A stretch of 64,000 nucleotides of DNA from Candidatus Margulisiibacteriota bacterium. Its GTDB lineage: Bacteria; Margulisbacteria; Marinamargulisbacteria; JBFWNS01. The translations under genes were made by a program, and so were the position numbers. Under the pieces are notes generated by a model. That model was not told the origin of the DNA, made no database searches, and saw only the letters and a list, made by a program, of their open reading frames with translations. Shown in pieces: positions 11,747 through 56,134 of the stretch. Position 1 is the first letter of the stretch; the number at the start of each line of letters is the position of its first letter. The stretch is taken from assembly GCA_050250935.1 (NCBI GenBank), contig JBFWNS010000001.1, positions 130,102-194,101 of the forward strand, in the 5' to 3' direction.

Positions 11747-11800
11747 AGTCTGGATTGGCCTCTTGCCACAACGTTTGGGTGTGACCTACCATGAACCTCC

Positions 11801-12472: not shown

Positions 12473-13121
12473 CATCCAAAAAATCCGGGGACGCAAGTCG
12501 CTGAGCCTTCGTGTGGAAGGCCCCGATCGGATTGTGGTGCGGTCGCCTTGGTTGGTGTCGCCGAAAACCATTTGGCAGTTTATCTATGAAAAATCCGACT
12601 GGATTCAAGACCGCTTGGACGATCACGCCGCCAGGCACCGTCCCCTGACAACCGGCCGGGAATTGCTGTATTTGGGCCAACCCAAAACCCTTCAGATTGT
12701 CCCTTCACCTAAAAAAAGACCGGTTGTAACCTTGGCACAAGACACCTTAAGGGTTGCAACCCAACACCCAGAAACTGTTAAAGCCGCTTTGGAAAAATGG
12801 TATCGGGCCAACGCTGCCGACATCATTTCGGACCGGGTCTCGATTTTTCAGCCCCAGGTCGGGAAACCGGTCAATGCCATTCGGTTTAAAACCCTCAAAA
12901 GCCGCTGGGGCAGTTGTTCGTCCAAAAATAATTTAAACTTTAACTGGACCCTGATGATGGCCCCTCTGGATGTGATCGATTATGTCGTGGTTCATGAACT
13001 CTGCCATTTGCTGGTCCCCAACCATTCGGCTGCCTTTTGGGAAACCGTCGCCAAGATCTTGCCCGACTACAAACAGCGGTGGGCCTGGCTTAAAAACAAC
13101 GGGGAAAAACTCCGCCTTTAG
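12393..13121 (+). CDS. YgjP-like metal-dependent hydrolase (DUF45 / WLM-type HExxH)
   Basis: [12 protein letters not shown] zinc-binding motif near the C-terminus; listed ATG overlaps rpe by 80 nt, so the true start may be a downstream alternative start codon. Start uncertain. Confidence 0.65.
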
Positions 13122-32854: not shown

Positions 32855-35716
32855 CTACCGCCAATAGCGCCCTACGGTGATGTTGATTGTCTGATGGTCG
32901 GTGTCGTCGTTGAGCATGTACGAGGCGTTGCTGCCAAAGCTGAAGAGGCGGACGCCCATCATGTCGGCCCAAATATCCCCATCCATGACTTCAAAAAACT
33001 CACCTGTGCCATCGAAGGCCACATCGATTTTGTCCGTTTGACCCGAGCTGACCAAATCGTACCAAACCACCAATCGATAGCTGGAATTCCGGGACAAAAT
33101 GCTGTCGGTTTTGGTAAACGTGGGTAAGGTATAGCTGGATTGACGATTGCCGGCCAATACCGACTCCATAGATCCAAGACTGTACACCATCGACTGACTG
33201 GATGGTCCCGTCACGGGGGTTTTGGCACCGGCAGAGAAGAAATAGTCCGACCAAACACCGGCATCGGATCCACCCATTTTAAACAAGCCCACTTTCCATG
33301 TACCGGTTTGACCTACGCCAACCCGAGAACTTAGCGTCGATGGGAAGGTTACAGTCCCGTTCAACCCAATGCTCCACGGTGTGGCAGCCCCAACTTTAAA
33401 GCTGGTTCGGCTTTCAGCGCCTTGCCAAACCACACGTCCAGACGATTGCTCCACCAAGACGGGCATGATGTTGAGTTCGTAGGTGGTTTCGTAGTTGTTC
33501 CCGATATCGCGAACCGTACGGGCCAACTGCTGTTTCAACTGGAAGGAATTCCCTTGGATAAAGCGATTGTCTTGCCAAGAGCTCCAAATAAATTTCCATT
33601 TGTAGTTATCACCACTGGAATCCCAGCTTCCGGAGGGATTAAAGGTATTGTTGTTCCAATCCACTTTAATGGCCGAGAGCCCCAGGTTGATGGCATAGGC
33701 CAAGAAATAGCCATCGGGTACCGTACCAGTCGGTGTATCCCATTGCAGGTTGGGTTGGGCTTTATCCGTATCAACATCCACATCCATGGTTTGCATTTCA
33801 AACGTGTCGTCCCAGCCTGTGGCTTGTACTCTGGCCATGTCCATGCCCCGTGGGTTCCGCCAATTAATCAGGCCAATGCTGGGTTTCAAAATTCTGACCG
33901 TTGTTGATGTCAACACATTGTTGTCGGCATCCAGCACCTTAATCGTGGCCGTTCCCGAAATGTAATCCGTCACAAAGGTGGGGGTAAAGTCTCCAGAAAA
34001 ACCTGTATTTTGATAAGGCGAGATGATCCAGGTGACATCGAAAGGATTATCCAAGGCCTTTTTGGATTGAGCAGCATTAAATGCCGAAATGGCAACCAGG
34101 GATTGAGACGATCTTAACGCTTGGGGATTCCCAATCGATTGGGGGTTATTGCCAGCAGAAACGCGTTGGTATTCCACCGTTTGCGTTCCGGTCGAGGTGG
34201 GGTATTCCAAAACCACACGGGCAGCCGCTGCAGAAGCGTTTTCTGCATAAAGAACCACGCGAGAATCCAAGGCATCGGTGGGTTGCCAGTTGTTGTCCGA
34301 TACTTGTCTATAGGCCCGAACAGGAACCAAAGAGGTTTCAACAATGTAATAGCGCCCGGTTTGAATGCTTACAAAATTAATGGCCTTAAGCAATACAAAC
34401 GGATCAAAAACGGGGCCATCGTGGGTAAAAAACTCATTTCGAACCATCAGCGGCAAAGAACTTCCATCCAATAATCCTGCTTGAATCATGACGGCAATGG
34501 CCTGAGGAACCGTCATGGTTTGGCTTTCGGTAATGGGCAATGTCCACCGGTTGTTTTTGGGGAAAATAACCCGCATGGCCGGCATCGTCGTGGTATCGGA
34601 CGTCGCGGTGGCATCGTAAAAGGCGTATAACTTTCTAAGTTGTGAATTATCTTGATTCATAACCCCCAACATTTCTGCCTTAACATTAGCAACCGACCAA
34701 TAGTCCGACTTTAACTCCCCTTCTGGCAAACTCTCGTTAAACGCCTGGGCAAACTCGGCAATGGTTACCGTTACACCATTCAAATAGCCCGTTGCAAATT
34801 GCTCAATAAAAAATTCTGGTGGCACGCCAACCGAAGATCCGTCTTTGGATCCGCCACCACTTTTACCCCCAAAAATGGACCGAATAATTTGTTTGGCACG
34901 ATCTAGGGTTAAGGTCGCATTAACCTGAGAATCCAAAGCGGCTTGTTGGGCCAATTTTCGTAAATCATCGTCGTTTTGCAACTGCTCGACGATTAGTTTT
35001 TGGGTATCGTCGGGCGCAGGAAACACGTCTTTATTCACCGTAGCATCGGTGGTTGGCTTGACCGGAGACACCCGCTGAATTTCCCCAGAGCTGAGTTTTG
35101 AATTGATGGTATCGGTGATTTTTTGTGTCAATTCGTCGGACAAATCCCCGCTGAATTTATTCCCGTTTCCTTTGGCTACTTTTTCGACCACATAATCCAC
35201 AATAGCCCGGGTCTTTTCAGAGACGTTGGCCGACACGGCCGTTTCTCCGCTTTTAACGTTCACATAGGTGTCCATGCGCAACACGTTTTGGGCTCCGGAA
35301 GAATCTGTCCCTGTTTTGACAATCCCGACCACATATTTTTTACCGTCTGCTATATTTTTGAATTCGTAAGCGCCATCCACCACATTGGCTGTAATGCCCG
35401 TGGGAATAACAGTGCCATCAGATCCAATTTCATATAAAATGGCTGTCCCATCCGACAAAGTCGAAATGTCCGACAAATGTTTTGTGAAGGCTTGAGACAA
35501 CCTTTTGGACGACGACAAACTGCTAATCGAAGACACCGGATTGGTAATCCCCACCTGGCTTTGATCTTGAGCCGATGCAATGACATAGCCACTTAAGGTG
35601 GTGGCCCCCGCATAACTGGTGGTCGAGGTTGTCGACGTGGTGGATTCCGATGCTTTTCCACAGCCCCCCAAAGCCAAAATGAATATCAGCGGAACCGCTG
35701 CAAACCACGTTTTCAT
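32855..35716 (-). CDS. Large predicted lipoprotein of unknown function
   Basis: Start set at MKTWF (ATG 35716, GGAGGG RBS 7 nt upstream); lipobox LALGGC followed by Ser/Thr-rich linker; ~950 aa with no recognised catalytic motif. Confidence 0.6.
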   Translation of the reverse strand: MKTWFAAVPLIFILALGGCGKASESTTSTTSTTSYAGATTLSGYVIASAQDQSQVGITNPVSSISSLSSSKRLSQAFTKHLSDISTLSDGTAILYEIGSDGTVIPTGITANVVDGAYEFKNIADGKKYVVGIVKTGTDSSGAQNVLRMDTYVNVKSGETAVSANVSEKTRAIVDYVVEKVAKGNGNKFSGDLSDELTQKITDTINSKLSSGEIQRVSPVKPTTDATVNKDVFPAPDDTQKLIVEQLQNDDDLRKLAQQAALDSQVNATLTLDRAKQIIRSIFGGKSGGGSKDGSSVGVPPEFFIEQFATGYLNGVTVTIAEFAQAFNESLPEGELKSDYWSVANVKAEMLGVMNQDNSQLRKLYAFYDATATSDTTTMPAMRVIFPKNNRWTLPITESQTMTVPQAIAVMIQAGLLDGSSLPLMVRNEFFTHDGPVFDPFVLLKAINFVSIQTGRYYIVETSLVPVRAYRQVSDNNWQPTDALDSRVVLYAENASAAAARVVLEYPTSTGTQTVEYQRVSAGNNPQSIGNPQALRSSQSLVAISAFNAAQSKKALDNPFDVTWIISPYQNTGFSGDFTPTFVTDYISGTATIKVLDADNNVLTSTTVRILKPSIGLINWRNPRGMDMARVQATGWDDTFEMQTMDVDVDTDKAQPNLQWDTPTGTVPDGYFLAYAINLGLSAIKVDWNNNTFNPSGSWDSSGDNYKWKFIWSSWQDNRFIQGNSFQLKQQLARTVRDIGNNYETTYELNIMPVLVEQSSGRVVWQGAESRTSFKVGAATPWSIGLNGTVTFPSTLSSRVGVGQTGTWKVGLFKMGGSDAGVWSDYFFSAGAKTPVTGPSSQSMVYSLGSMESVLAGNRQSSYTLPTFTKTDSILSRNSSYRLVVWYDLVSSGQTDKIDVAFDGTGEFFEVMDGDIWADMMGVRLFSFGSNASYMLNDDTDHQTINITVGRYWR

Positions 35717-35876
35717 CTCTGTCCCTCCATTTTTGAAACTGTTTCGTTCATTATACATACTTCTTGCCCCTTTCCCAAAATTTTGAGGTTTTAAACCTGT
35801 TTTTTTAATCGAAAATTAGTTTTCTATTTGTGAAGGGGGATTCAAAAATGGTATTCTGATCCTCACTTTTACCCCT

Positions 35877-37142
35877 ATGAACAAACGGTTTTTAGTGCTT
35901 TTAGAACAAGAAATTTCCCTTTGGGTTAACCGTGGCTTTATTCAAGCTGACCAAGGCGAAACCCTTCGTCAGCACTATGCCACCCAAAGCACACCCAAAC
36001 GGGTTTGGGCCCATCCTGGCACCAGCTTGTGGCTTGCCATTGGTGGCTGTTTGGTGGGATTTGGCCTGTTGCTGCTCTTAACTTACCAATGGTCTTTGTA
36101 TCCCATTTGGGTTAAGACCCTTTTCGCCGCCCTGCTTTTGGTGGCTTCTCAAGGTTGCTTTTGGTGGACGCCAAAACCCGCTTCTTCACCGATTTTAAAA
36201 GACCTTTTTTTACTGATGTTTGGACTGGGAACCGGCCTTTCGTTTTTTCTGCTGAATGCAACCTGGCAGTTTTGGTCATACCATGGTTGGCTGGGTCTTT
36301 GGGTGGGCTTTTTGGCCTTGGGGGCTTGGGTTTCGGGCCGAAATAGCCTGACCTATTTCATGATGATTTTGTGCCAACTCTGGTTTGTTCAACATTTTTC
36401 TTGGGTTGAAGGCGGGTTGTTGTTGGCTCTGGTAGGCTGGCAACTTGTCTCGAACAACTGGTTGTCTGCAACGCCCAAAACAGGTCTTTTGCCCGCCGCT
36501 TGGCTGCTTTTTACGGCGATGGGATTGATGCAGGTCTTTAACGGCGGCCCTTTTTCGCTCTATTTTTTGGGATTGGGGCTGTTTTTTTCCCTATTGATTG
36601 TCCGCCACACCCCCAAACTCCACTGGCCCCCAGATTCGGCCATTGGGGTGAGCTTTTTGGGGTTGATGGCTCTCTGTCTTTTTGGCACTTTTAAACTGCA
36701 GTGGCCCTCTTTAATTCAATCGGTTTTGCCAACAACCGTATACTTAGGTTGGGCCAGCACCGTTTTATTAATGGGGCTTGTGGGCCTCTGGGGACTGGCC
36801 TTGTGGCAAAATAAGGCGCGACGTTCGGCTGGGCTGGGGTTTGGGGCAGGGGTTCCAGGTCTGGTTCTGCTGGCTGGGCTCTGGCGTTTGGCCCCCACCC
36901 CCGTTTGGCCCATTCAAACTGCTTTTTTGGTATTGGGTTTATTTTGGTCTGTGTGGCTGGTTCGGGAAGGCCTTTCCAGGAATCAGCTGGCGTGGATCAA
37001 TGTCGGGGGCATCTATGGGACCTTGTTGGTGGCCACCTTCTTTTTCCACCAAGCCTTCGGGGCTGGCCTCCAAGGCTTAGCGTTGCTGATTTTGGGCTCG
37101 GCTATTATCGGTCTTAATTTATATGCAAGGCGAAAATCGTGA
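35877..37142 (+). CDS. Polytopic membrane protein, DUF2157-like N-terminus fused to a multi-TM body
   Basis: 421 aa; soluble N-terminal ~45 aa then at least 10 hydrophobic helices rich in Trp/Gly/Leu; family assignment tentative. Confidence 0.5.
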   Translation: MNKRFLVLLEQEISLWVNRGFIQADQGETLRQHYATQSTPKRVWAHPGTSLWLAIGGCLVGFGLLLLLTYQWSLYPIWVKTLFAALLLVASQGCFWWTPKPASSPILKDLFLLMFGLGTGLSFFLLNATWQFWSYHGWLGLWVGFLALGAWVSGRNSLTYFMMILCQLWFVQHFSWVEGGLLLALVGWQLVSNNWLSATPKTGLLPAAWLLFTAMGLMQVFNGGPFSLYFLGLGLFFSLLIVRHTPKLHWPPDSAIGVSFLGLMALCLFGTFKLQWPSLIQSVLPTTVYLGWASTVLLMGLVGLWGLALWQNKARRSAGLGFGAGVPGLVLLAGLWRLAPTPVWPIQTAFLVLGLFWSVWLVREGLSRNQLAWINVGGIYGTLLVATFFFHQAFGAGLQGLALLILGSAIIGLNLYARRKS

Positions 37143-37723
37143 AAAAACCCAGCTTTTCAACACCCTTGATCGCCCTTGTTCTGACGCAATGGCTTGTATT
37201 CGGTGGTTTTCTGGCCAACGAAGCTTTGATTCGAGCCTTTGGCACCCATCACCTGTTTCGTTTAGAAGAAAACCCGGTTTCTTTGTATTTGCAACAAACC
37301 CGTGTTCCCCTTCCGTTTAAAGACACCACCATCACCCTCAATGCTGCCCCGTTTAAATTGGGCGATCAGGGCTATGTGTTGCTGACGAAAGACAGCTATG
37401 GCTGCGAGGTTCCCTATAGTTTTAGGCCTTCAAAACCCAAGCAAGGTTTTTGTATTCAAGGCACCATTATCGGGTTAACCCCAACGTCCATTACGGTTCG
37501 CTTGGATTTGCCCTCGTTTTTACCCGAAACCCTTCGTGCCCCTCGAACCTCTTTTTCGTCTGCATCAGCCTGGCAAAAAGAGCCCGGACTGGTTACGGTG
37601 CAAATTTGGGGGTCTCAAAGCCGGATTCGCACCCTGTTCATCCGTCGAATGCCGCTTGAAATCTTTCTTAAAACCCCGGCACCTACCCCACAATTTCAGT
37701 TTTTAAAGGAGAAAAAGTCATGA
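37139..37723 (+). CDS. Hypothetical membrane-anchored protein (possibly GDYXXLXY-like)
   Basis: 194 aa; N-terminal TM helix; GDQGYVLL motif loosely resembling GDYxxLxY; start overlaps upstream gene by 4 nt. Confidence 0.4.
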   Translation: MKKPSFSTPLIALVLTQWLVFGGFLANEALIRAFGTHHLFRLEENPVSLYLQQTRVPLPFKDTTITLNAAPFKLGDQGYVLLTKDSYGCEVPYSFRPSKPKQGFCIQGTIIGLTPTSITVRLDLPSFLPETLRAPRTSFSSASAWQKEPGLVTVQIWGSQSRIRTLFIRRMPLEIFLKTPAPTPQFQFLKEKKS

Positions 37724-39063
37724 GCACACCCACCAACAAATTCTTTGTTTTGGATACCAACGTTTTAATCCACAACCCAGCGGCCTTGTACTCGTTTAGC
37801 GAACACACGGTTGTCTTGCCCATCACGGTGATTGAAGAACTCGACAAATTCAAAACCGCTTCCGATAAAAAAGGCATGCATGCCCGGCAAGTCATGCGCG
37901 AAATTGATGGCCTGGTTCGCAAAGGGGCTTTAAAAGAAGGGGCAAAAATCAAAACGGGTGGGAAATTACGCATTGCCCTATGTCCCGAAAAAAGTGTCCT
38001 TAGTTCTTTGGATCTGTCGGTGAATGACAATAAAATTTTAAACTGTGCCCTCTCGTTTTTGGCCCCAGGCAACACTGTTTTTTTTATCTCCAAAGATTTG
38101 AATTCCAGAATCAAGGCCGAGGCACTGGGCATTGTGGCCATGGACTACGAAAAAGAAAAAGTAGAATACACCTCGTTGTACCAGGGTTGGCGCGAGATAG
38201 CTCTGCCACAGGCCAGCATTGATGCGCTGTATAAAGACCATAAACTAGAGGTTAGCAAAACCAACTATTTGGACAACGAGTATTTTTGCATTAAATCTTT
38301 GGAAAACCCCAATACCTCCTGTCTGGCCAAATTTGATGCCCCTCACAATCAACTGGTGCCCATTCGGTCCCATTTCGAAGCCATGGGCGTTAAACCCGCC
38401 AACCTCGAACAACAATTTGCCTTCGATTTATTGCTCAACGACGCGGTGGTCTTGGTCAGTTTGGTGGGACAAGCAGGCACAGGGAAAACCCTGATTGCCC
38501 TGGCCTGCGGCCTTCAACAGGTGCTGGGCAAATCCCCCAAATACGAAAAATTACTGGTGGCCAGACCCATTATGCCCATGGGCAAAGACATTGGCTATTT
38601 ACCTGGTACCAAAGACCAAAAGCTTAATTATTGGATGCAGCCTATTTTCGACAACCTGAATTTTATTATGCACAAAGACGAAACCCCAGAAGACGAACAG
38701 CCCCGTTATAAAAAGGCCGAAAAGTTCGACAAAATCGACTACCTTCTGGAATCTCAGTTGCTTGAAATCGAAGCCCTCACCTATATTCGGGGTCGCAGTA
38801 TTCCCAACCAATTTATCATTATTGATGAGGCCCAAAATCTGACCCCTCACGAAATCAAAACCATCATTTCCCGAGCCGGCAAAGGCACCAAAATTGTCCT
38901 GACTGGCGATGCCGAACAAATCGACAACCCCTATTTGGATGCCAATTCCAACGGACTCAGCTACACCGCCGAACACCTCAAAGGCCAACACATTACCGGC
39001 CACATGTTTTTGTCCAAAAGCGAGCGCTCGCCTTTGGCAACCTTGGCGGCAGAGATGTTATAG
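37720..39063 (+). CDS. PhoH2-type protein (N-terminal PIN domain fused to PhoH-like ATPase)
   Basis: PIN start FVLDTNVLIH; Walker A GQAGTGKT; Walker B FIIIDEAQN; typical PhoH2/YlaK architecture. Confidence 0.8.
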   Translation: MSTPTNKFFVLDTNVLIHNPAALYSFSEHTVVLPITVIEELDKFKTASDKKGMHARQVMREIDGLVRKGALKEGAKIKTGGKLRIALCPEKSVLSSLDLSVNDNKILNCALSFLAPGNTVFFISKDLNSRIKAEALGIVAMDYEKEKVEYTSLYQGWREIALPQASIDALYKDHKLEVSKTNYLDNEYFCIKSLENPNTSCLAKFDAPHNQLVPIRSHFEAMGVKPANLEQQFAFDLLLNDAVVLVSLVGQAGTGKTLIALACGLQQVLGKSPKYEKLLVARPIMPMGKDIGYLPGTKDQKLNYWMQPIFDNLNFIMHKDETPEDEQPRYKKAEKFDKIDYLLESQLLEIEALTYIRGRSIPNQFIIIDEAQNLTPHEIKTIISRAGKGTKIVLTGDAEQIDNPYLDANSNGLSYTAEHLKGQHITGHMFLSKSERSPLATLAAEML

Positions 39064-41091
39064 GGCGTTAAAACTCTCCATCTTTTTTCGCATTGCGTTA
39101 GTCAGTCGAAATCCTGGCATCTGCAGACCTCGTTTAAGACAATCGGACAATGCCGTTTTGACACTGGGGGGATACTTTGCCAAAGGCGCCATCGCAACCT
39201 CAAAATGCATCAAATGAAATTCCCAATATTTCCCCACAATAGCCTTAATAAAAGGAGGGGCATCGGAGACCATAACCGCATTATAAATCTCTTTTAGATG
39301 ACCTTCCAAGTGGGCTAGATAAGCCTTTTGCTCTGGGGAAAGTTGCGTTGTATTTTTTCCAAACGTGGCTTTTAAATACTCCCCTGCATCAAAGATCAAT
39401 TGATGGACACAAAACAACAGACGATTAAAGAGTTCCTCAAGATACTGATAGGCCGTTTGAATCTGCACCTCTCTATCGGATGTGGGTTGTTCAGCACCCC
39501 ATTGTTTAAACTGATCCGAAACCATTGAAAAAGCCCGCTTTAAAGCAACTTTATAGGCCATCGTAAGATCCGGCACGAGGATTTGTTGGGAACCAACCTT
39601 ATACGAACGGTATTCATAGGCCACATTTTGGGTCCCATAAAGTGCAAAACACAGGGTCTTTAAACTAACGTTTGGGGATTGACTTAACCGATCCAAATAT
39701 CGTTCTGGACAAAAATCTCTGAGGGTTGTTGCCAAAGTTGCAAAAACACCTGCATAGACATACTCAAAACGTTGCCCAATTTCTGGAGGCAAGGAAACCA
39801 GTTCAGGTTCCCTTTGGTAGCAAGCTATAACCCGTACCCATCGACCCTGAGGTGTTTCTTGGACTGCCACAACCGCGCGATTGGTATAATCGCTGATACT
39901 ATTTCCCCGTTGATCGGTTTCTTCCACCCCAAATTTGGTTCGACCTGCAGATTGCATATGGTTTCTGGTAAGCGCAGGATTACGGGGGTGGCTTCGTTCC
40001 ACAAATTTTACATTCGACTGACAACTATCCTGGGGTTTTACCACCACAGTTGGACAGGCAAACTCCTGACCGGGGACCAAAAATTTGGAATCAGGGTTGG
40101 GAAAACCAGGAAAGTATCGTTTCGCTTCTACCCCATTGAAACACTGGGCCAAAACCGGGACATTGGGATACAGCATATGGGCAGGATCAAATTCTACAGG
40201 GTTCACGCCATAACGGGTCTGTGCCAACAGTAACCGTTGCATCCCTTTAGGCCACTGATATCCAAAAACCCGAACATCGCCATCTTCTGTGGCTCTAGGA
40301 GATGCAGTATAAACATACTCGAATCTGGGCGTCGTTGACTTGGGTAGCTGTTGCCGAAAATCAGTCTGGGTTGGGAAAAGGGCCCGAAACGATTCAGAAG
40401 TCGTACGCCTTGGGAGAGGCGCAGAAGTTGTCAGGCGGTGTTGGGGGTCCACCGATGGGGCCAGGCTTGCCAAAATACCCTCGTGGGCTCCAAAACGAAG
40501 TAAAGATTCTCCCAGATCTTGAACTTCACAGATCAATGGCCTTCCAGCTTGATCTTTATAATCAACCACCATCACAACCGTATCCCCAACCTGCCATGGC
40601 ACGGGCACAAAATCGGCATCCACCATGGCTTCTGGCCTTCGAGATCTCTCGATAAACGCCTGCAAAACGCTACTTTTCGCCAGATTGTCCGGATGAATCT
40701 CAAACCGAGATCCATCTCGCAGGGCTTGCAAAGGGTCAGCCCCTGCCCGAAGTAAGGCATCTTCGTAGTTAGAGCCTCGACACCCATACAGCACCTCATG
40801 TAAGGGTGTATGCCCTGCTTGATCTGATTGAAGATGAAACAAGGGCGTTCCATAGTATCGCTTTAACAGCAACACCAATTTCTGAAACCGTTCAGGGGCC
40901 AATCGTTCTCGTATGGCCTGAATCAGTAATAACAGTGGATTTAGTCTGGATTGTAGCGTTCTTAATACGAGATTAAGATCGCGGGGATTTTGGCTGTCTC
41001 GAGTCGCCTGTACCAATGCTAATTGGAATACCGTCAAAGCATCGGGTCCGCCTACTGCAGGTTGAATCGAGACATATTTGTAAACACCCAT
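39058..41091 (-). CDS. Hypothetical 677-aa protein with at least one ankyrin-repeat-like motif
   Basis: AGHTPLHEVLYGCRGSNYEDALLRAGADP matches the ankyrin consensus; no signal peptide; local composition looks more AT-rich than the flanking housekeeping genes; 3' end overlaps PhoH2 by 6 nt in convergent orientation. Confidence 0.5.
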   Translation of the reverse strand: MGVYKYVSIQPAVGGPDALTVFQLALVQATRDSQNPRDLNLVLRTLQSRLNPLLLLIQAIRERLAPERFQKLVLLLKRYYGTPLFHLQSDQAGHTPLHEVLYGCRGSNYEDALLRAGADPLQALRDGSRFEIHPDNLAKSSVLQAFIERSRRPEAMVDADFVPVPWQVGDTVVMVVDYKDQAGRPLICEVQDLGESLLRFGAHEGILASLAPSVDPQHRLTTSAPLPRRTTSESFRALFPTQTDFRQQLPKSTTPRFEYVYTASPRATEDGDVRVFGYQWPKGMQRLLLAQTRYGVNPVEFDPAHMLYPNVPVLAQCFNGVEAKRYFPGFPNPDSKFLVPGQEFACPTVVVKPQDSCQSNVKFVERSHPRNPALTRNHMQSAGRTKFGVEETDQRGNSISDYTNRAVVAVQETPQGRWVRVIACYQREPELVSLPPEIGQRFEYVYAGVFATLATTLRDFCPERYLDRLSQSPNVSLKTLCFALYGTQNVAYEYRSYKVGSQQILVPDLTMAYKVALKRAFSMVSDQFKQWGAEQPTSDREVQIQTAYQYLEELFNRLLFCVHQLIFDAGEYLKATFGKNTTQLSPEQKAYLAHLEGHLKEIYNAVMVSDAPPFIKAIVGKYWEFHLMHFEVAMAPLAKYPPSVKTALSDCLKRGLQMPGFRLTNAMRKKMESFNAL

Positions 41092-41188
41092 ACTCTGTGG
41101 ACACCCTTAGTCATTAAACTAAAGGATTATCGGATCCACTTGACCCCAAATGCATCTATTTTTCTCGATTTATTTGAATTTTATTGGG

Positions 41189-41614
41189 TTATCGTTGTTT
41201 CAAATACATCAACGCCAAAAGATAGCTATGCACCCCAAATCCTGCGATTTGACCTTGGCAAACGCCAGCCGTCACCGATTTGTGGCGGAATTCTTCTCGA
41301 GCGTGGATGTTGGACAAATGTACCTCGACTTTGGGCAAATCGATGGCTGCCAAGGCATCCCGAAGGGCATAGCTGTAGTGGGTAAACGCCCCACCATTCA
41401 GAACCAGGGCATCAAACTGGTTGGGCGCCGCTTGAATACGGTCTATCAGTTCACCTTCGTGATTGGATTGAAAAATGTCCAGGGTTAAGCCATTGTCTTG
41501 GCCAAACTTCATCAATGTTGCGTTGATGTCCTCTAGGGTGGTGCTGCCGTAAACGGCTGGTTCGCGCTTTCCAACCAAGTTCAAATTGGGGCCATGAATA
41601 ATTAAGATTCGCAT
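41189..41614 (-). CDS. aroQ: 3-dehydroquinate dehydratase, type II
   Basis: 141 aa; MRILIIHGPNLNLVGKREPAVYG...VEVHLSNIHAREEFR. Confidence 0.85.
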   Translation of the reverse strand: MRILIIHGPNLNLVGKREPAVYGSTTLEDINATLMKFGQDNGLTLDIFQSNHEGELIDRIQAAPNQFDALVLNGGAFTHYSYALRDALAAIDLPKVEVHLSNIHAREEFRHKSVTAGVCQGQIAGFGVHSYLLALMYLKQR

Positions 41615-42726
41615 ACAAGCTCCTTTATAACAGCTTCAATCAGGCTAAGCGGCACATCGGACCGGGTTTCGACCTTGCCCAGCTGGGTGGGCAACACAAA
41701 TCGCAACTTACCCTGACGCACTTTTTTGTCTTGAAACAGCGGCGTCATCAGGGCCTGTACGGCGATGGGTTTTAGGGTTAATTCAAAGCCCAATTCGGCC
41801 AACAAATTTTCCAACCTCACACAGGCGTCTTCTTCGATCAGATGCATGCGGTGGGCAATGCGCATGGCCGCTTTCATGCCAATGGCTATGGCCTCGCCGT
41901 GCAGATAGACTGAATACCCAAAAGCCGCTTCAATGGCATGGCCGATGGTGTGTCCAAAATTCAATATCTCGCGCAATCCTGCTTCTTTTTCATCCAAAGA
42001 CACCACATGGGCTTTAATTTGTGCCGATTGTTCGACAATGTGCTGCCAAACCTCGGGGTTTTGGTCAAAATTTGGGGTTCGAATCACCTCGGAATGGGCC
42101 TGAAGCCAGGCAAAAAAGTCGGCGTCAAAAATCACGCCATATTTCACCACTTCGGCCAATCCACACCGCCATTCTCGGCTGGGCAGGGTTTTTAAAACCT
42201 CTAAATCACAGACCGTCATGGTGGGTTGATAAAACGTGCCTACCAAATTTTTGCCGTGGGGAATGTTAATGCCTGTTTTGCCGCCGATGGCCGAATCCAC
42301 CTGGGCAAGCAGGGTTGTGGGAACTTGGAACAACCGAATGCCCCGCAAATAGACCGAGGCTGCAAATCCAGCCAAATCGCCAATCACGCCGCCGCCCAAG
42401 GCCACAACCGCATCGCCACGCTCGAACCGATGTTCGGCAAGCAAGCCCACAATGTGCTGAAGTTGCTCAAAACATTTGGCGGTTTCCCCACTGGGTATCA
42501 GGATGGGTAAACAGTCGAAACCAGCCTCCTGAAGGGATTGGATCAGTGGCGTTGCATGGACCTGAATATTGGGATTGGTCACCACAGCTATTTTTTTGGC
42601 CTTTGTTTGATCCCGAATCCAGTCTGGGATTTTCCCCAAAAGCCCTCGTCCGACATGAATGGGATAGGTGGTTGTTGCAGTGGTCACGGTAATCGGCATG
42701 GGGTCATTATACCTGAAATTTTTCAA
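41602..42726 (-). CDS. aroB: 3-dehydroquinate synthase
   Basis: GGGVIGDLAGFAASVYLRGIRLFQVPTTLLAQVDSAIGGKTGIN nucleotide-binding region; overlaps aroQ by 13 nt. Confidence 0.85.
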   Translation of the reverse strand: MKNFRYNDPMPITVTTATTTYPIHVGRGLLGKIPDWIRDQTKAKKIAVVTNPNIQVHATPLIQSLQEAGFDCLPILIPSGETAKCFEQLQHIVGLLAEHRFERGDAVVALGGGVIGDLAGFAASVYLRGIRLFQVPTTLLAQVDSAIGGKTGINIPHGKNLVGTFYQPTMTVCDLEVLKTLPSREWRCGLAEVVKYGVIFDADFFAWLQAHSEVIRTPNFDQNPEVWQHIVEQSAQIKAHVVSLDEKEAGLREILNFGHTIGHAIEAAFGYSVYLHGEAIAIGMKAAMRIAHRMHLIEEDACVRLENLLAELGFELTLKPIAVQALMTPLFQDKKVRQGKLRFVLPTQLGKVETRSDVPLSLIEAVIKELVCES

Positions 42727-42805: not shown

Positions 42806-43282
42806 ATGCGTTACCTATCGTTATGTGTGGGTGTTTTGCTCTTAATTTCGTCCGGATTAACCGCAGCGCCACGATGGGGAGTCGAAGTTGTTCCCCACAC
42901 AACCAGCATTGGGTTGTTGTGCTATGACACGGGTTTTGGCGGTGGGATTTCGATTGGCAGTTCTGCGGACAATGCAGCGGCTAAAACGGCCCTAACTCGC
43001 ATCGGGTTTTTTGTCGAAAAGCGGGATTTGGTCTCGGACGATATGATGATGCTAACCTATGGGATTGATGCTTATACCCTATCCGGAACGGATGCCGGTG
43101 TGACCTTGGATAAAGGCTATGGTTATGGACCTTTTATTGGTTTCGAAAAACCCTTGGCCAACCGTATTTTACTGTCGGTTTGGACCCTGCCAATATCGTT
43201 TCATACTGTAGCAAAAGCAGGGGTTTCGGTGGATACCGTGAAGTATTTTGACAGCGGCTTGGGCGTTAGCTATTGGTTCTAG
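42806..43282 (+). CDS. Small secreted protein, probable small outer-membrane beta-barrel
   Basis: 158 aa; signal peptide; Gly/aromatic-rich alternating segments; C-terminal ...GVSYWF. Confidence 0.5.
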   Translation: MRYLSLCVGVLLLISSGLTAAPRWGVEVVPHTTSIGLLCYDTGFGGGISIGSSADNAAAKTALTRIGFFVEKRDLVSDDMMMLTYGIDAYTLSGTDAGVTLDKGYGYGPFIGFEKPLANRILLSVWTLPISFHTVAKAGVSVDTVKYFDSGLGVSYWF

Positions 43283-45541: not shown

Positions 45542-46791
45542 TCGATCCGAAGCGCATCCGCGATGAATTGGACACTGTTCGCCAAGCCCTGCAAAACCGA
45601 CACTTTCCCGCCGAAGCCCTGGACCAAGTGGCTCAACTGGATGCCCAGTGGCTGGAAGCCAGACACAAACTCGAACAGCTCCAAACCGAACGGAACCAAC
45701 AAACCCCCAAGGGCAAACCCACGGACGAACAACGCCAAGCCCTGGGGCAACTCTCTGCAGCGGTTAAAGCCCAACAAGAAACGGTGGACGCCTTGGCCAC
45801 CGACCTTCAAAAAGCCTGTCTAATGCTCCCCAGCATTCCCGATGCCACGGTGCCCATTGGTGCCTCTGAAGATGACAATGTCGAAGTCAAAACCTGGGGA
45901 ACCCCACCCACCTTAGATTTTGAACCCAAAAGCCACGATGTTTTGGCCGAAAAATTGGGGATTTTGGATTTCGAAAGCTCGGCCAAAACCTCGGGAGCTC
46001 GGTTTGTGTGTTATCGGGGATTGGGCGCGAAATTGGAACGTGCCCTGATCAACTTTATGCTGGATGTTCAAACCCAAGACAACGGCTACGAAGAAATGAT
46101 TCCCCCTGTTTTAATCAATTCTCAAAGCATGGTGGGAACCGGTCAGTTGCCCAAATTCGCCGAAGAAAGTTTCAAGATCGAAAACACCGATTTTTGGTTG
46201 GCCCCCACCGCCGAGGTTCCCCTGACGAACCTATACCGGGACCATATTTTTGACGAGGCCGAGCTTCCAAAAGCCATCACCGCCTATACCCCTTGTTTTC
46301 GCAAAGAAGCAGGCTCTTATGGCAAAGACATGAAAGGTATTATCCGTCTTCATCAATTTAACAAGGTCGAGTTGGTCCGGTTTTGCAGCCCGGAACACTC
46401 TGCAGCCGAACACGAAAAGCTGTTGGGCCATGCCGAAACCATTTTGCAAAAACTGGGGCTTGCCTACCGGGTCATTACCCTGTGCACCGGCGACTTGGGC
46501 TTCTCTGCCGGCAAAACCTATGACATCGAAGTTTGGCTTCCCTCTCAAAATAAATACCGAGAAATTTCGTCCTGTTCGAACTTTTTTGATTTTCAAGCCC
46601 GCCGTGCCATGATACGATACAGAGAGTCTGGGACGGGGAAAGTACGCTATTTACATACCCTGAACGGATCTGGATTGGCTGTTGGCCGCACCTTTGCTGC
46701 CCTGTTGGAAAATGGTCAGCAAGCGGATGGCAGTATTCTGATTCCAGAAGTTCTGGTTCCATATCTGGGGGTGAAACAACTTCATGGCTGA
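45538..46791 (+). CDS. serS: Seryl-tRNA synthetase
   Basis: N-terminal coiled-coil arm, class II core motifs ([18 protein letters not shown]...[18 protein letters not shown]). Confidence 0.9.
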
Positions 46792-47065
46792 AAAAAACAC
46801 CAAATTCATTAAATTTTTCAAAGCCCTTGCCAACGAAGAACGGCTTGAAATCCTAAAACTCCTCAAAAAAAATACCGAAATGTTTGCTCAAGATGTTGAA
46901 AAACACTTCTTTTTAGAGCAATCCACGACGTCGCATCACCTGAACATGCTCAAACGGGCCGGGATTACCAAGTCTCGAAAAGAAGGTCGCAAAATTTTTT
47001 ATTCCATCGATTACGATCAATTGAATGCTGCCTTGCAAGAATTTTCTGGGCTCATCAACGGGTAA
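46784..47065 (+). CDS. ArsR/SmtB-family HTH transcriptional regulator
   Basis: 93 aa; [16 protein letters not shown]...[14 protein letters not shown] helix-turn-helix pattern. Confidence 0.7.
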
Positions 47066-47142
47066 AATCCGGGTAATATTCAGAATTATCCATACATGTA
47101 TCCCTTAAAACCTGTCGATAAACCAGCCAAAGGGCAACGATT

Positions 47143-47457
47143 ATGACAGCACATTCCCAAAATCTTCCAACCCAAACGACACCTGATTCTCGCAGAGGCG
47201 GGGTTTTTATGGTGTCTTCAAAGGAAAAACAGTCGAAATTTGAAGCTGTTTTGAAAAGCATTTTACCCCATTTGGGCACCCACGAAGGTCGTATTATTTT
47301 GGCTGAAGTCATGATTGCTTTAAAACTCGAAGGGATCATTGGTAAACAATTGTCCGAACACGACGCCAAAATGGTTGGGGTGATTAACCAATCCATTGTG
47401 GGCACGCCCTATCGAAAACTCGAGGCCTTGCGTCTGGCCCAAAGACTGTTGGAATAA
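47143..47457 (+). CDS. Hypothetical small protein
   Basis: 104-aa ORF, first of three tightly packed small ORFs; no motif recognised. Confidence 0.4.
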   Translation: MTAHSQNLPTQTTPDSRRGGVFMVSSKEKQSKFEAVLKSILPHLGTHEGRIILAEVMIALKLEGIIGKQLSEHDAKMVGVINQSIVGTPYRKLEALRLAQRLLE

Positions 47458-47476
47458 AGGGCTTAGGGGATTTTCT

Positions 47477-47656
47477 ATGGTGGATAGCTTTTTTAGCCAA
47501 CGCCCCTCGGAACTGCTGTTTAACAAGGCCAAGGATGTTTTAATGGACATGAATGTGAGTCCTGAAATCATCAAAGATTTGGCCAGCAGCTTGGATTCGC
47601 CTACTAAACATCCAGACCCGCCCATCGACACGGGTAAGGGTGGGACTGTGGTGTAA
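47477..47656 (+). CDS. Hypothetical small protein (59 aa)
   Basis: Start chosen at MVDSFF (ATG 47477, AGGGGA 8 nt upstream) rather than the upstream ATG of the listed ORF. Confidence 0.3.
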   Translation: MVDSFFSQRPSELLFNKAKDVLMDMNVSPEIIKDLASSLDSPTKHPDPPIDTGKGGTVV

Positions 47657-47967
47657 TGAACATCAATCCTTCTTCCCGATTTGAGCCCGATCCTGGCTTA
47701 AAGGCCCAACAGGCTGCTGCACAACCCGACCCAAATAACCCTTTTTTAGCCCATTTAAAACAGGCTTCAACCAACCCCAACTTGACCCCATTGATTCCCA
47801 ACGAGCAAGCTCAAAAACAGTCTTTGGAGCGGGAAAAACAAAAAATTGGGGAAGAGTTTTATGTGGAAGAATCTGAAGATGGGGAAAGCATTGCCAAAAC
47901 CGTCAGCGAGATCAAAAAAAAGCTCAAAGCCATTTCCGATCTAGAACGACGGCATTTGGGGTTATAA
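47656..47967 (+). CDS. Hypothetical small protein, Pro/Gln-rich N-terminus and acidic C-terminus
   Basis: Start ATG overlaps the previous stop (taATGa); no motif recognised. Confidence 0.4.
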   Translation: MNINPSSRFEPDPGLKAQQAAAQPDPNNPFLAHLKQASTNPNLTPLIPNEQAQKQSLEREKQKIGEEFYVEESEDGESIAKTVSEIKKKLKAISDLERRHLGL

Positions 47968-47968
47968 G

Positions 47969-48223
47969 TTACCGATAGACATCTTTTCGATGTCTTACAC
48001 GCAATACAGTAATTGTGGCTTCCTCAACGGTATAAACCAACCTGTAATCGCCTTCTCGAAGGCGGTAGGTATGCAGAGAACCGCTGAGTTTTTTACTGTC
48101 CGTTGGGAAAGGGTTATCGATTAATTCTAAAAGACGCTTATCAAATCGCCTCAGCATCAAAGCAGGCAACTCTTCAAGCTCTTTTTGGGCCTTTTTGCTA
48201 ATAAAAAGACTAAATTTTTCCAT
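47969..48223 (-). CDS. Type II toxin, RelE/ParE family
   Basis: C-terminal YRLREGDYRLVY...VLRVRHRKDVYR is a classic RelE/ParE signature; start set at MEKFSL (ATG 48223, AAGG upstream), overlapping the antitoxin stop. Confidence 0.75.
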   Translation of the reverse strand: MEKFSLFISKKAQKELEELPALMLRRFDKRLLELIDNPFPTDSKKLSGSLHTYRLREGDYRLVYTVEEATITVLRVRHRKDVYR

Positions 48224-48419
48224 GCGCCTTAAGCTGTTCTCGAAATTTGTCGTAAGAGATTTTCTCATCCTCTCTACGCTCTGCAACAACAGCCAAGTCT
48301 TCTAAATCCTCCATGAGGGTTTCATAGCTTTCAATGGGCAACACCACAAAGGCCCGATTACCATCGGCATCCAATACAAACTGGGGGGCTGTTTTAGACG
48401 ACTCTTTTTTCTTTTTCAT
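48210..48419 (-). CDS. Type II antitoxin, Phd/YefM-like
   Basis: 69 aa; FVVLPIESYETLMEDLEDLAVVAERRED pattern; immediately upstream of and overlapping the toxin. Confidence 0.65.
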   Translation of the reverse strand: MKKKKESSKTAPQFVLDADGNRAFVVLPIESYETLMEDLEDLAVVAERREDEKISYDKFREQLKAHGKI

Positions 48420-48424
48420 GAGCC

Positions 48425-49240
48425 TTATTTTACATGGATTGAATTCAAAAACAACACCCCTTTGGCGTTGAGTGCGTGCCCGGATCCGATGCCCACAACA
48501 TGGCCGCGGATGCGTCGGCCCAAAATCGCAAAATCGCCGATCATGTCCAAGACTTTGTGGCGGGCCAGTTCGTCTGGAAACCGCAACGGGTTTAGGTAGC
48601 CGTCGTCTTTGATGATGACTGCGTTGTCCAAGCTGCCGCCTTGGGCCAGGCCTTTTTCCAGCAAATGGGCCACTTCGTGGTAAAAGCCATAGGTGCGGGC
48701 TGGGGCAATGTCTTGGATAAACGATTCTGGGCTGTCCAACACCGAGGCCACTTGGGTGCCAATAAAGGTGTCGGGATAGGACAAGACATAGGTGAAACGG
48801 GGTTCTGAACTGGGAATAAACAGGATTTTCTTATCCCCATCTTCGATAAAACCAGGGGTTGTAATCACCTGTTCTGGCCAAGGGGTTTCTTGATTTTTAA
48901 GTCCGGCCTTTACAAAGGCCTCCACAAACGCGTTTGCACTGCCATCCACAACGGGTACTTCGGGATGGTCCAATTCGACCCGAAGATTGGCTATACACAA
49001 CCCATAACAGGCCGCCAAAAAATGTTCTGGGGTTTGGACCCTGGCCCCTGCTTTTTCGAGCAAGGTTGCCCGGGCCGTATGAGCCAAAGCATCGGGACGC
49101 ACCGGAACCGCTTGCCCGGCAACCTCGAACACAAGTCCTGTCCCCACTGGGGCTGGATGGACCCTACACGTGTTGGCTTTTCCGCTGTGAATGCCGATCC
49201 CATGGATGGCGAAGGACTCGGCTACGGTGTGCTGTTTCAC
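48425..49240 (-). CDS. lpxC: UDP-3-O-acyl-N-acetylglucosamine deacetylase
   Basis: ARTYGF, HKVLDMIGDF and SGHALN motifs at LpxC-typical positions. Confidence 0.85.
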   Translation of the reverse strand: MKQHTVAESFAIHGIGIHSGKANTCRVHPAPVGTGLVFEVAGQAVPVRPDALAHTARATLLEKAGARVQTPEHFLAACYGLCIANLRVELDHPEVPVVDGSANAFVEAFVKAGLKNQETPWPEQVITTPGFIEDGDKKILFIPSSEPRFTYVLSYPDTFIGTQVASVLDSPESFIQDIAPARTYGFYHEVAHLLEKGLAQGGSLDNAVIIKDDGYLNPLRFPDELARHKVLDMIGDFAILGRRIRGHVVGIGSGHALNAKGVLFLNSIHVK

Positions 49241-53398: not shown

Positions 53399-56134
53399 TT
53401 ATTGACAGGCTTCGCAATCGGGATCGTTGATCAAACAGGCTTTGGGCATTTCGGCAGGAACCGGTTGTTCTACCGCAGGCTTTTCGGCGACCACGGCATC
53501 TGTCACCGACATTTTGGTGATCTGAGACGCCCCCAAGGTTCGGAGGTAGTAGGTGGTTTTAAGACCTTGTTCCCAAGCGGCCATGTAAATGTCGCTGAGG
53601 GCTTTCCCGCTGGTGGTGTTGCTGAATACGTTGGTAGAGGCCGCTTGATCGATCCATTTGGACCGTCTTGCGGCTGCCCCAATAATCCATTTCCCATCGA
53701 TTTCGAAGGTTTCTTTGTACTTGGCTTTGATGGCCACGGGAATCTCTTCAATGTCTTGAATAGACCCATTGTAGAGCTTGATTTTGGCCACCATGTCGGG
53801 ATTCCACAATCCCAGTTTTTCCAATTCGTCGATCAGATAGCGGTTGATCACGATGAAGTTTCCAGACAAATTTTCTTTCATGTAGATGTTTTTATAAACC
53901 GGTTCTGTGCAGGGATAAACACCGGAAATATTGGCAATGGTGGCGGTGGGGGCGATGGCCATGGTGTTGGAGTTTCTCATGCCGTGTTGGGCAACCTGAG
54001 CTTTCAAAGCAGCCCAATCCAAGCGTTGAGCTTTATTCACTTGGATGGCTTGTCCCCGTTGCTCTTCCAAAACCATTAAGGTGTCGAGCGGGAAAAGCCC
54101 ACGGGACCATTTGCTGCCGTCATAGGAAGGATAAGTGCCCCGTTCTTGGGCCAACAAGGCACTGGCCTTAATGGCATAATAAGAAATCATTTCCATGGAT
54201 TGATCGGCAAACTCAAGGTTGGCTTCAGAATCAAAGGCAATGCCCACTTGGAACAAGGCATCTTGATAGCCCATCAAACCCAACCCGACCGCACGGTGAC
54301 GGAAGTTGGCTTTTTCGGCTTCTGGAATGGGGTAAAAATTGTTATCGATGACGTTGTCGAGCATGCGAATGCCCACTTCCACAGTCTTGGCGATTTTGGC
54401 TTCATCCAGGGCCCCATCTTTGATCATTCTGGCCAAGTTTAGGCTAGCCAAGTTACAAACCGCTGTTTCGTCTTTCGAGGTGTTCAAGGTGATTTCGGTA
54501 CACAGGTTGGACGAGTGAATCACCCCACAATGGTCTTGGGGATTACGAACGTTGGCCGCGTCTTTGAAGGTCATCCAGGGATGGCCTGTTTCGTAGAGCA
54601 TGGTCAACATTTTTCGCCACAGATCCAAGGCTTTCACTTTTTTGGCTCGGGGCAAATTTGCAGCTTCGTATTCCACATATTTGGCTTCGAAGGCCTTGCC
54701 GTACAGATCGTGCAATTCGGGAACATCGGCTGGGCAGAAGAAGGTCCAGTCTTGATCTTGTTGAACACGTTTCATGAACAAATCTGGAATCCAGCTGGCC
54801 GTATTAACATCGTGGGCGCGGCGGCGTTCGTCGCCGGTATTCTTTTTCAGTTCTAAAAATTGTTCGTAATCCAAGTGCCACATTTCCATGTAGGCGCACA
54901 TGGCCCCTTTGCGTTTACCCCCTTGGTTCACGGCCAGGGCGACATCGTTGAAAATTTTGATAAACGGAATGACCCCTTGGGACATGCCGTTGGTGCCTTT
55001 GATTTTAGACCCTGTTGCCCGAACATAGGTAAAGTCGGATCCAATCCCTCCGGCCCATTTGCTGAGGTTGGCGTTGTCGGCATAGAGTTTAAAGATGCTG
55101 TTGAGCGAATCGCCGGCCAAATTGAGGTAGCAAGAGCTCATTTGGCTGTGGGTGGTACCGCTGTTGAATAAGGTTGGGGTTGAAGAAACCAAGTCCATTT
55201 GAGACAACACGTTGTAGAACTCGATGGCGCGGGCTTCTTTATCGGCTTCTTTAAGCGCCAAGCCCATGGCCACACGCATCCAGAACCATTGAGGCAATTC
55301 GTAGATATTTTTTTCCAGGGATCGATCGCGAAGGAAATAACGGTCGATTAAAATCTGAACCCCCAAATAATAAAACAACTTGTCTCGTTCTGGGTTCAAG
55401 GCTGCCGCCAATTTTTCCAAATCGAAGCCAGCTAGCTCGGGATTCAGCATTTCGTAAGAAATCCCTTTGGCCACATAATCCGCAAATTTTTCTTTATACA
55501 ACTCGGCCAAGCGCGGACTATTCATGGGCTCGCCCAAAATTTTGCCGTACAACTCGTTGCTGATGGCGATGCGGGAGGCCAGGTGGGCATAATCGTAGTG
55601 CAATTCGATGCGTTCTCTGGCGGCGGTTAGTACCAAGAGGTCGATTTCGTGCTTAGGGATGTTGTCGTAGACCTGCTTGGTGACCGCTTCGACCATTTCG
55701 GTGATGGACACGCGCATGAGGTCTGGGGCCAATTGGCGCAGCTGCTCTTCGATGGATTTGGAATCGAAGATAACGGTTTCGGTTTCGCTGACTTTGACCT
55801 GAAGTTGCTTCTCGCGGATTTTGTCCAACACCTTTTGTTGGCGAACCTGTTTGTGCATCTCCCGATACACAATGTAGTTGCGGGCAATTTTGTGGTAGCC
55901 CGCTTTCATGAGCATTTCTTCAACCACGTCTTGAACCGATTCCACGATGGTGGTGTCGTTGTTCCCAGACCTGGCGATCATCGCATAGACCACTTCTTCG
56001 GTTAGTTTGGCCACAGCCGCTGTATCCACTTTGTTTTCGGACAAAAAGGCCTTCTCGATGGCACTGAAAATTCGAGCTTTATCGAAAGGAACTTTTTGAC
56101 CGTTGCGTTTGATGATGTAGTGGATTAGGGCCAT
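53399..56134 (-). CDS. nrdA: Ribonucleoside-diphosphate reductase alpha subunit (class I, with ATP-cone)
   Basis: 911 aa; N-terminal ATP-cone (IIKRNGQKVPFDKARI), active-site region, C-terminal Cys pair (CEAC). Confidence 0.9.
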   Translation of the reverse strand: MALIHYIIKRNGQKVPFDKARIFSAIEKAFLSENKVDTAAVAKLTEEVVYAMIARSGNNDTTIVESVQDVVEEMLMKAGYHKIARNYIVYREMHKQVRQQKVLDKIREKQLQVKVSETETVIFDSKSIEEQLRQLAPDLMRVSITEMVEAVTKQVYDNIPKHEIDLLVLTAARERIELHYDYAHLASRIAISNELYGKILGEPMNSPRLAELYKEKFADYVAKGISYEMLNPELAGFDLEKLAAALNPERDKLFYYLGVQILIDRYFLRDRSLEKNIYELPQWFWMRVAMGLALKEADKEARAIEFYNVLSQMDLVSSTPTLFNSGTTHSQMSSCYLNLAGDSLNSIFKLYADNANLSKWAGGIGSDFTYVRATGSKIKGTNGMSQGVIPFIKIFNDVALAVNQGGKRKGAMCAYMEMWHLDYEQFLELKKNTGDERRRAHDVNTASWIPDLFMKRVQQDQDWTFFCPADVPELHDLYGKAFEAKYVEYEAANLPRAKKVKALDLWRKMLTMLYETGHPWMTFKDAANVRNPQDHCGVIHSSNLCTEITLNTSKDETAVCNLASLNLARMIKDGALDEAKIAKTVEVGIRMLDNVIDNNFYPIPEAEKANFRHRAVGLGLMGYQDALFQVGIAFDSEANLEFADQSMEMISYYAIKASALLAQERGTYPSYDGSKWSRGLFPLDTLMVLEEQRGQAIQVNKAQRLDWAALKAQVAQHGMRNSNTMAIAPTATIANISGVYPCTEPVYKNIYMKENLSGNFIVINRYLIDELEKLGLWNPDMVAKIKLYNGSIQDIEEIPVAIKAKYKETFEIDGKWIIGAAARRSKWIDQAASTNVFSNTTSGKALSDIYMAAWEQGLKTTYYLRTLGASQITKMSVTDAVVAEKPAVEQPVPAEMPKACLINDPDCEACQ

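Follow-up and report, generated by a model that had tools for sequence, protein, structure and literature searches.

A long orphan gene with atypical codon usage and a single ankyrin-type repeat in a Margulisbacteria genome

Within a 64,000-nucleotide stretch of the genome of a Candidatus Margulisiibacteriota bacterium (NCBI GenBank assembly GCA_050250935.1, contig JBFWNS010000001.1, positions 130,102 to 194,101; hereafter the window, with positions counted from its first letter), the minus strand encodes a protein of 677 amino acids (aa) at 39058..41091. This is a genuine coding gene, which found no full-length homologue in our database searches, shows the most deviant codon usage of the 43 genes of the window and specifies one ankyrin-type (ANK-type) repeat in the N-terminal part of its product. 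The reading that we favor, with roughly even confidence, is that of a lineage-restricted gene, probably a single foreign gene, whose soluble product has an ANK-type N-terminal module that most plausibly binds other proteins. The probable foreign origin is drawn from the observed codon usage; the protein-binding role and the cytoplasmic location of the product we infer.

Coding status and codon usage

The gene starts with ATG, and an exact look-up of its ~76 kDa product returns MGE4169243.1, 'MAG: hypothetical protein AB7F28_00800 [Candidatus Margulisiibacteriota bacterium]', encoded on a contig of 576 kb. It is thus already deposited as a hypothetical protein, and the class to which it belongs, that of orphan genes with atypical codon usage, is well known. 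That it is truly coding is supported by several lines of evidence. First, 677 open codons have a chance probability of ~1.8e-16 at the local base composition, on which ground we rejected a chance open reading frame (ORF). Second, a codon model trained on the window's 42 remaining genes ranks the annotated frame top of the six, both for the whole gene and for each 100-codon window, and the G+C content at first codon positions (GC1) exceeds that at second positions (GC2), as is the pattern of real genes. Third, it does not shadow a gene on the opposite strand, because the longest plus-strand ORFs inside it reach only 153 and 117 aa; the antisense frames also score lower. Finally, it is not an assembly chimera, because the independent Logan contig SRR27751816_22129 is identical over 16.2 kb that include both gene junctions. 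A non-functional locus, be it an ORF that is open by chance or in decay, or a chimeric assembly, would agree with the low coding score of the gene under the codon model (0.08 vs a mean of 0.29, z = -1.9) and with the want of a confident AlphaFold2 (AF2) fold for its product. However, low AF2 confidence is expected for any protein modeled without an alignment, and, given the length of the open frame, its rank among the six frames in all windows and the exact agreement of two assemblies across both junctions, we hold such an explanation to be very improbable.

The deviation of the gene lies in its synonymous sites. Its G+C content at third codon positions (GC3), 0.417, is the lowest of the 43 genes (mean 0.553, z = -3.6). 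When its codons were redrawn 20,000 times from the genome usage with the amino-acid sequence held fixed, the expected GC3 was 0.555 ± 0.018 with a minimum of 0.483, which places the observed value at z = -7.8. Likewise, both the codon-usage χ-squared (180, 41 degrees of freedom, p = 2e-19) and Karlin's B, a codon-bias distance (0.402), are the largest among the 43 genes. The C-ending codons GCC, ACC, CCC, GGC and CGC, which have shares of 60%, 67%, 52%, 38% and 31% in the genome, fall to 36%, 25%, 33%, 11% and 6% in this ORF, and its overall frequency of C at third positions (C3) is 0.162 vs 0.315. The low GC3 is even along the whole ORF and ends at its borders, with 0.562 in phoH2 on one side and 0.549 in aroQ on the other. 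At the same time, GC1 (0.586) and GC2 (0.410) are slightly over the typical values of the window, and a low GC3 combined with above-average GC1 and GC2 is an odd combination for a native gene. In amino-acid composition the protein is rich in Arg, Pro and Gln, with Ile, Lys and Asn being scarce.

A preliminary description of this locus, made by eye, had seen a gene and an upstream spacer more AT-rich than their neighbors and taken this as a hint of horizontal acquisition, to be checked by computing G+C content and codon usage. The bulk G+C content proved ordinary: at 0.471 vs a gene mean of 0.497 (z = -1.0) the gene ranks eighth of 43. The spacer, with a G+C content of 0.36, is no anomaly either, as it lies inside the 0.34-0.55 range of the other spacers (pooled 0.45). 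The claimed AT-richness is therefore weak for the gene as a whole and strong only at its third positions, and a horizontal acquisition draws support from the codon usage (χ-squared 180, GC3 0.417) and none from bulk AT content. It stays short of proof, as no syntenic relative was found in which presence or absence of the gene could be compared.

The second-strongest codon outlier of the window, the large subunit of ribonucleotide reductase (53399-56134, minus strand), deviates in the opposite direction (C3 0.387, χ-squared 127). From its high C3, C-ending codons would seem to be a mark of strong expression in this genome.

The ankyrin-type repeat and the remainder of the protein

Residues 90-120 of the protein (DQAGHTPLHEVLYGCRGSNYEDALLRAGADP; 40732..40824, minus strand) show the ankyrin signature, with G-x-TPLH in helix 1 and LL-x-x-GADP in the loop after helix 2. 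We built an ad hoc hidden Markov model (HMM) of the repeat from 35 repeats of five ankyrin proteins obtained as phmmer matches and ran it with filters off. It recognizes exactly one repeat in the 677-aa protein, at 23.8 bits, with the runner-up stretch at -3.2 bits, and the remaining proteins of the window score 2.5 bits or less. The motif is not a chance occurrence, because none of 5000 shuffles of the protein attains its score (maximum 12.0); it is real, but it is single. An exhaustive phmmer search of 1.84 billion representative proteins returned only five matches (E = 1.4e-5 to 5.7e-4), all via residues 78-171. All five are multi-repeat ankyrin proteins, and several of their repeats align to this one region. 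The Pfam Ank model (PF00023), run on a 61-aa fragment, aligns to residues 92-120 with 12.8 bits (E = 0.17), below its gathering score of 21.1, and on the full-length protein Pfam and NCBIfam gave no family, Ank included, even at E<=10. A tandem array was sought with the repeat HMM and by self-BLASTP, which found no second repeat and no internal repeats.

By the usual marks of the ankyrin family, then, the core signature is present, the profile score stays under the threshold and the tandem array is absent. The preliminary description had called the motif a textbook one, to be abandoned if profile methods detected no ankyrin repeats; they detect one, at residues 90-120, which is sub-threshold in Pfam and outside any array, and the claim survives by half. 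A motif that looks 'textbook' by eye can evidently be an isolated repeat under the family threshold. One repeat is too little, and the protein should be filed neither as an ankyrin-repeat protein nor as a host-targeting effector.

Judged by eye, the stretches 57-89 (…LVLLLKRYYGTPLFHLQSD) and 123-155 might be degenerate repeats on either side of the recognized one, in which case the N-terminal region (residues 1-155; 40627..41091, minus strand) could be a degenerate three-repeat ANK-like module. This region, which holds the repeat, is predicted to be mostly alpha-helical, with a low-confidence AF2 predicted local distance difference test score (pLDDT) of 28-46. Here, the predicted helix pairs 50-80, 97-115 and 134-150 would fit such flanking repeats, in models with pLDDT below 50, and helices 97-102 and 108-115 match the ankyrin helix pattern, in a model that at pLDDT 36 is unreliable. 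The repeat HMM lends no profile support to repeats on either side of residues 90-120.

The rest of the protein resembles nothing that we could recognize. Its middle region (residues 156-435; 39787..40626, minus strand) is rich in Pro, Arg and Gln and predicted to form short strands and coil, with no recognizable domain. The C-terminal region (residues 436-677; 39061..39786, minus strand) is predicted to form long alpha-helices, at an unreliable AF2 pLDDT of ~45-53, and a domain search of it gave no Pfam match under E 0.1. Pfam on five fragments of the protein returned sub-threshold noise besides the Ank hit, PHROGs and PADLOC returned no match, and regular expressions for catalytic motifs (P-loop, HExxH, GxSxG, CxxC and others) found none. 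The sole phmmer match in PDB, the oxysterol-binding protein-related protein 1 (ORP1; 8zq3_B), aligns residues 130-202 of its chain to residues 39-120 of the query; it is not significant (E = 0.25, 12.7 bits) and suggests no homology past the repeat motif. AF2 without an alignment gave a pLDDT of 36 both for the full length and for residues 1-215, so the structure prediction that had been proposed as a way of counting ankyrin repeats and finding a C-terminal effector domain was unusable. At the N-terminus (MGVYKYVSIQPAVGGPDALTVFQLALVQATRD) no signal peptide is apparent on a hydropathy check, and no membrane segment is present, the top Kyte-Doolittle 19-residue mean being 1.13; the protein is predicted to be soluble. 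Its C-terminus (…NAMRKKMESFNAL) is basic. Accordingly, the preliminary description was right in that the protein has neither another recognizable domain, Pfam and NCBIfam being empty on its full length, nor a signal peptide.

The preliminary description had further pointed to the frequent role of bacterial ankyrin proteins in host interaction. A secreted ankyrin-repeat effector acting on a eukaryotic host or partner cell, like the Ank proteins of Legionella, Coxiella, Anaplasma and Wolbachia, would accord with the presence of an ANK-type repeat, with the foreign-like codon usage and with the basic C-terminus, and some Margulisbacteria ('Termititenax') do live attached to gut protists. However, the lone repeat lies under the Pfam threshold with no array around it, the search for a secretion signal found none at the N-terminus, and no genes of type III, type IV or type VI secretion systems occur in the window. 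Neither the Pfam and NCBIfam searches nor that of PDB detected an effector-type catalytic domain, and nothing relevant was found in the literature linking Margulisbacteria with ankyrin; SRR27751816, the run with the identical Logan contig, is likewise named in none of the searchable papers. Moreover, the window looks metabolically self-sufficient, with shikimate enzymes, IlvD, transketolase, PdxJ, ribonucleotide reductase and a TonB-dependent receptor. We consider an effector of this kind improbable; with no signal peptide, no secretion or mobility genes in the window and no effector-like C-terminal domain, the suggestion is unsupported.

Relatives, origin and genomic setting

No relative of the protein was found in a word-indexed search of 5.8 billion clusters, in back-translated pattern scans of GTDB species genomes, JGI metagenomes and IMG/VR, or by tblastn against plasmids and phages. 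The exhaustive phmmer search found no full-length homologue among the 1.84 billion representatives, its matches being restricted to the ANK motif, and the window holds no paralogue. The closest relatives of the neighboring PhoH2 are 62-67% identical, and none of 160 PhoH2 loci shares a neighboring gene with the window or encodes a relative of the 677-aa ORF; looking for the gene in related genomes, as had been advised, thus yielded neither a homologue nor a syntenic relative. The search of 5.8 billion clusters missed the query itself, because in its 90% cluster an unrelated 45-aa JGI peptide stands as the representative (11/33 identities in the best local match, E = 0.024). That such a peptide heads the cluster is apparently an artefact of how the database was clustered.

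Orphan status by itself is ordinary in this poorly sampled lineage. Around 8 of the 43 proteins of the window are without a Pfam match, and the database match of the 194-aa protein encoded nearby is only itself. A 967-aa ORF (AB7F28_00780; 32855-35758, minus strand), which lies 3.3 kb from the 677-aa gene and uses native codons (GC3 0.54), has no match in Pfam, NCBIfam, PHROG or PADLOC and a single homologue in the 5.8 billion clusters (990 aa, 40% identity, ENA ERZ27280300). It is a second large lineage-specific protein near the 677-aa gene. The contig with its homologue ends before the relevant side, and its gene order is otherwise unrelated. As these neighbors are nearly or fully without homologues, the lack of relatives of the 677-aa protein is unsurprising. 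It is the codon usage, and not this lack, that sets the gene apart from the other orphans here, because these use near-native codons, with a GC3 of 0.54 in the 967-aa ORF and of 0.49-0.50 in the 194-aa ORF and in a 158-aa one.

Under the reading that we favor, the gene would have come from a foreign source, and alone, to its place between phoH2 and the aroB-aroQ pair. Its transcription may be read-through from aroBQ or may start at a weak promoter within the spacer. The helical, ANK-like module at the N-terminus would then serve as a protein-binding surface, and it may tether the following ~520 residues, in which no domain is recognizable, to a partner in the bacterial cell. Several points weigh against this. 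The gene has no known donor or homologue; an integrase, a tRNA and flanking direct repeats, any of which could betray an insertion, are all absent; and none of the PhoH2 loci provides a syntenic relative displaying the empty site. No single ankyrin repeat is known to fold on its own, and flanking repeats are undetectable here, while the models with pLDDT 36 are unusable, which makes the protein-binding role a conjecture. Further, the GC3 of 0.417 is near the pooled intergenic G+C content of 0.45, and hence a native gene of low expression, with little selection on its codons, could mimic a foreign signal. Of the features expected of a genomic islet, a deviating codon usage with sharp borders is present and mobility signatures are absent.

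This last possibility, that of a native, fast-evolving and weakly expressed gene whose synonymous sites drift to mutational equilibrium without selection for C-ending codons, is consistent with the nearness of GC3 to intergenic composition. It is also consistent with the commonness of orphans in the window, with the absence of mobility signatures in the repeat and tRNA scans and with the C3 of 0.387 of ribonucleotide reductase, which suggests that C3 tracks expression. However, the other Pfam-less and presumably low-expression genes keep a near-normal GC3 (0.54; 0.49-0.50), and the lowest GC3 of all together with above-average GC1 and GC2 would be unusual in a native gene. Nor was a homologue found in a library that includes the proteins of the ENA assembly encoding the homologue of the 967-aa protein. 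We regard a native origin as rather unlikely, though as an alternative to be taken seriously. Alternatively, the gene might have been carried by a mobile element or phage that has since decayed, and might be, for instance, an uncharacterized defense, anti-defense or toxin gene that now stands alone as an islet. Its atypical codon usage and orphan status would fit such a history, as would the RelB/ParE pair and several small Pfam-less ORFs ~6 kb off. This too is improbable, since the gene has no PHROG, PADLOC, phage or plasmid match, is accompanied by no integrase, transposase, tRNA or flanking repeat and has housekeeping genes with native codon usage as both of its neighbors.

The immediate setting of the gene, which lies between phoH2 and the aroB-aroQ pair, is compact. 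Downstream it converges on the gene for PhoH2, a protein with PIN and PhoH ATPase domains (37720..39063, plus strand; native codon usage, GC3 0.562). The two stop codons abut, the TAA of the 677-aa ORF (read from TTA) at 39058-39060 and the TAG of PhoH2 at 39061-39063, such that the ORFs, stops included, share the 6-nt overlap TTATAG (39058..39063), just as first described. Upstream lie aroQ (41189-41614, minus strand; GC3 0.549) and aroB (41602-42726, minus strand; GC3 0.56), both with native codon usage. A 97-nt spacer (41092..41188, minus strand; G+C content 0.36) separates aroQ from the ORF, and the sequence AAGGGTG (41102-41108, minus strand), 10 nt ahead of the ATG, reads as a possible Shine-Dalgarno site. 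Promoter-like and terminator-like sites around the gene show no excess over shuffle expectation. A near-perfect 24-nt palindrome (CCAAAAGCGAGCGCTCGCCTTTGG, 39014-39037) lies within the last codons of phoH2, 21 nt past the stop of the 677-aa ORF on the opposite strand; as no T-run follows it on either strand, it is unlike an intrinsic terminator. On the far side of this junction, the genes for a DUF2157 membrane protein, the 194-aa protein and PhoH2 form an overlapping run (35877-39063, plus strand) that is downstream of and convergent to the 677-aa ORF. The 4-nt start/stop overlaps within it (37139-37142 and 37720-37723) indicate that the three are probably one operon.

The wider window has the appearance of a metabolically self-sufficient gene content. 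Its genes are housekeeping and biosynthetic, with products that include UvrD, Mfd, a Clp ATPase, transketolase, IlvD, PdxJ, Rpe, LpxB, LpxC, FtsEX, RseP, a SurA-like chaperone, a TonB-dependent receptor, both ribonucleotide reductase subunits, serine hydroxymethyltransferase, prephenate dehydratase, the seryl- and arginyl-tRNA synthetases and a protein with an SLH domain. No secretion-system, integrase, transposase or phage genes are present among the 43 genes, and the sole tRNA is at 63.5 kb. A repeat search for insertion scars around the 677-aa gene recovered only short matches in two copies, such as chance alone would give.

A few other observations concern the window at large. The stretch from serS to lpxC (about 46784-48430) holds an HTH_20/HTH_5 regulator, three small Pfam-less ORFs (104, 59 and 103 aa) and a RelB-like/ParE pair, and could be a small accessory islet. 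The Pfam-less 158-aa protein mentioned above (42806-43282, plus strand), with mildly atypical codons (GC3 0.50), has a clear signal peptide (MRYLSLCVGVLLLISSGLTAAP) and terminates in …YWF; from its sequence it looks like a small outer-membrane beta-barrel protein. The 563-aa protein encoded at 61793-63484 (minus strand) has its SLH domain at the C-terminus, in a genome that also has LpxB, LpxC and a TonB-dependent receptor. The diderms related to Cyanobacteria typically have outer-membrane proteins anchored by SLH domains, which fits the assignment of this genome to Margulisbacteria. Lastly, a 261-aa ORF at 11786-12571 (minus strand) is a shadow of the true gene, that of ribulose-phosphate 3-epimerase (11801-12472, plus strand; Pfam 289 bits), the plus-strand frame of which is favored by the codon model.

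Comparison with known systems

The 677-aa protein shares with the Pfam ankyrin clan (PF00023 Ank, PF12796 Ank_2) the signature G-x-TPLH … LL-x-x-GADP of its residues 90-120. The likeness stops there: ankyrin-repeat proteins have a tandem array of at least three repeats, whereas this one has a single repeat of 12.8 vs 21.1 bits, and ~95% of its length is without similarity to any ankyrin protein. It also recalls the type IV-secreted Ank effectors, such as AnkB and AnkX of Legionella, the Ank proteins of Coxiella and AnkA of Anaplasma, in being a bacterial protein that combines a eukaryote-like motif and a foreign-looking composition with long non-repeat regions. The bacteria that make those effectors depend on a host and have a Dot/Icm or VirB system, and the effectors themselves have several clear repeats and often a second effector domain, such as an F-box or FIC. 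None of these hallmarks, be it several repeats, a secretion system or a second domain, is seen in the 677-aa protein or the 64-kb window.

A bolder proposal would make the gene the founder of a new family with new folds, captured from an unsampled donor (a eukaryote, a giant virus or an unknown bacterium), with a product that binds a protein of a partner cell via a minimal ANK-like module. We think this marginally less probable than the effector or mobile-cargo explanations. If it were true, such a captured ANK-like binder would be the first eukaryote-like interaction factor in the phylum Margulisbacteria. Should the protein prove to be exported and to have a eukaryotic binding target, this would be relevant to the interaction of non-photosynthetic relatives of Cyanobacteria with protists. 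As it is, the significance is small, in that the gene adds one more hypothetical protein to a poorly sampled candidate phylum in which orphans abound. Its modest value is that of a clean example of a probable long single-gene insertion, flagged by synonymous sites only and without mobility scars.

The closest parallel is with taxonomically restricted, or orphan, genes. Like them, the 677-aa gene has no homologue, is AT-richer at its synonymous sites and stands isolated among conserved housekeeping genes. It departs from typical orphans in that, at 677 aa, it is far longer, and from those orphans that have mobile-element neighbors in that none adjoin it. In conclusion, the most fitting description of the gene is that of an orphan with atypical codon usage, the product of which works at most like a minimal ANK-containing adaptor.

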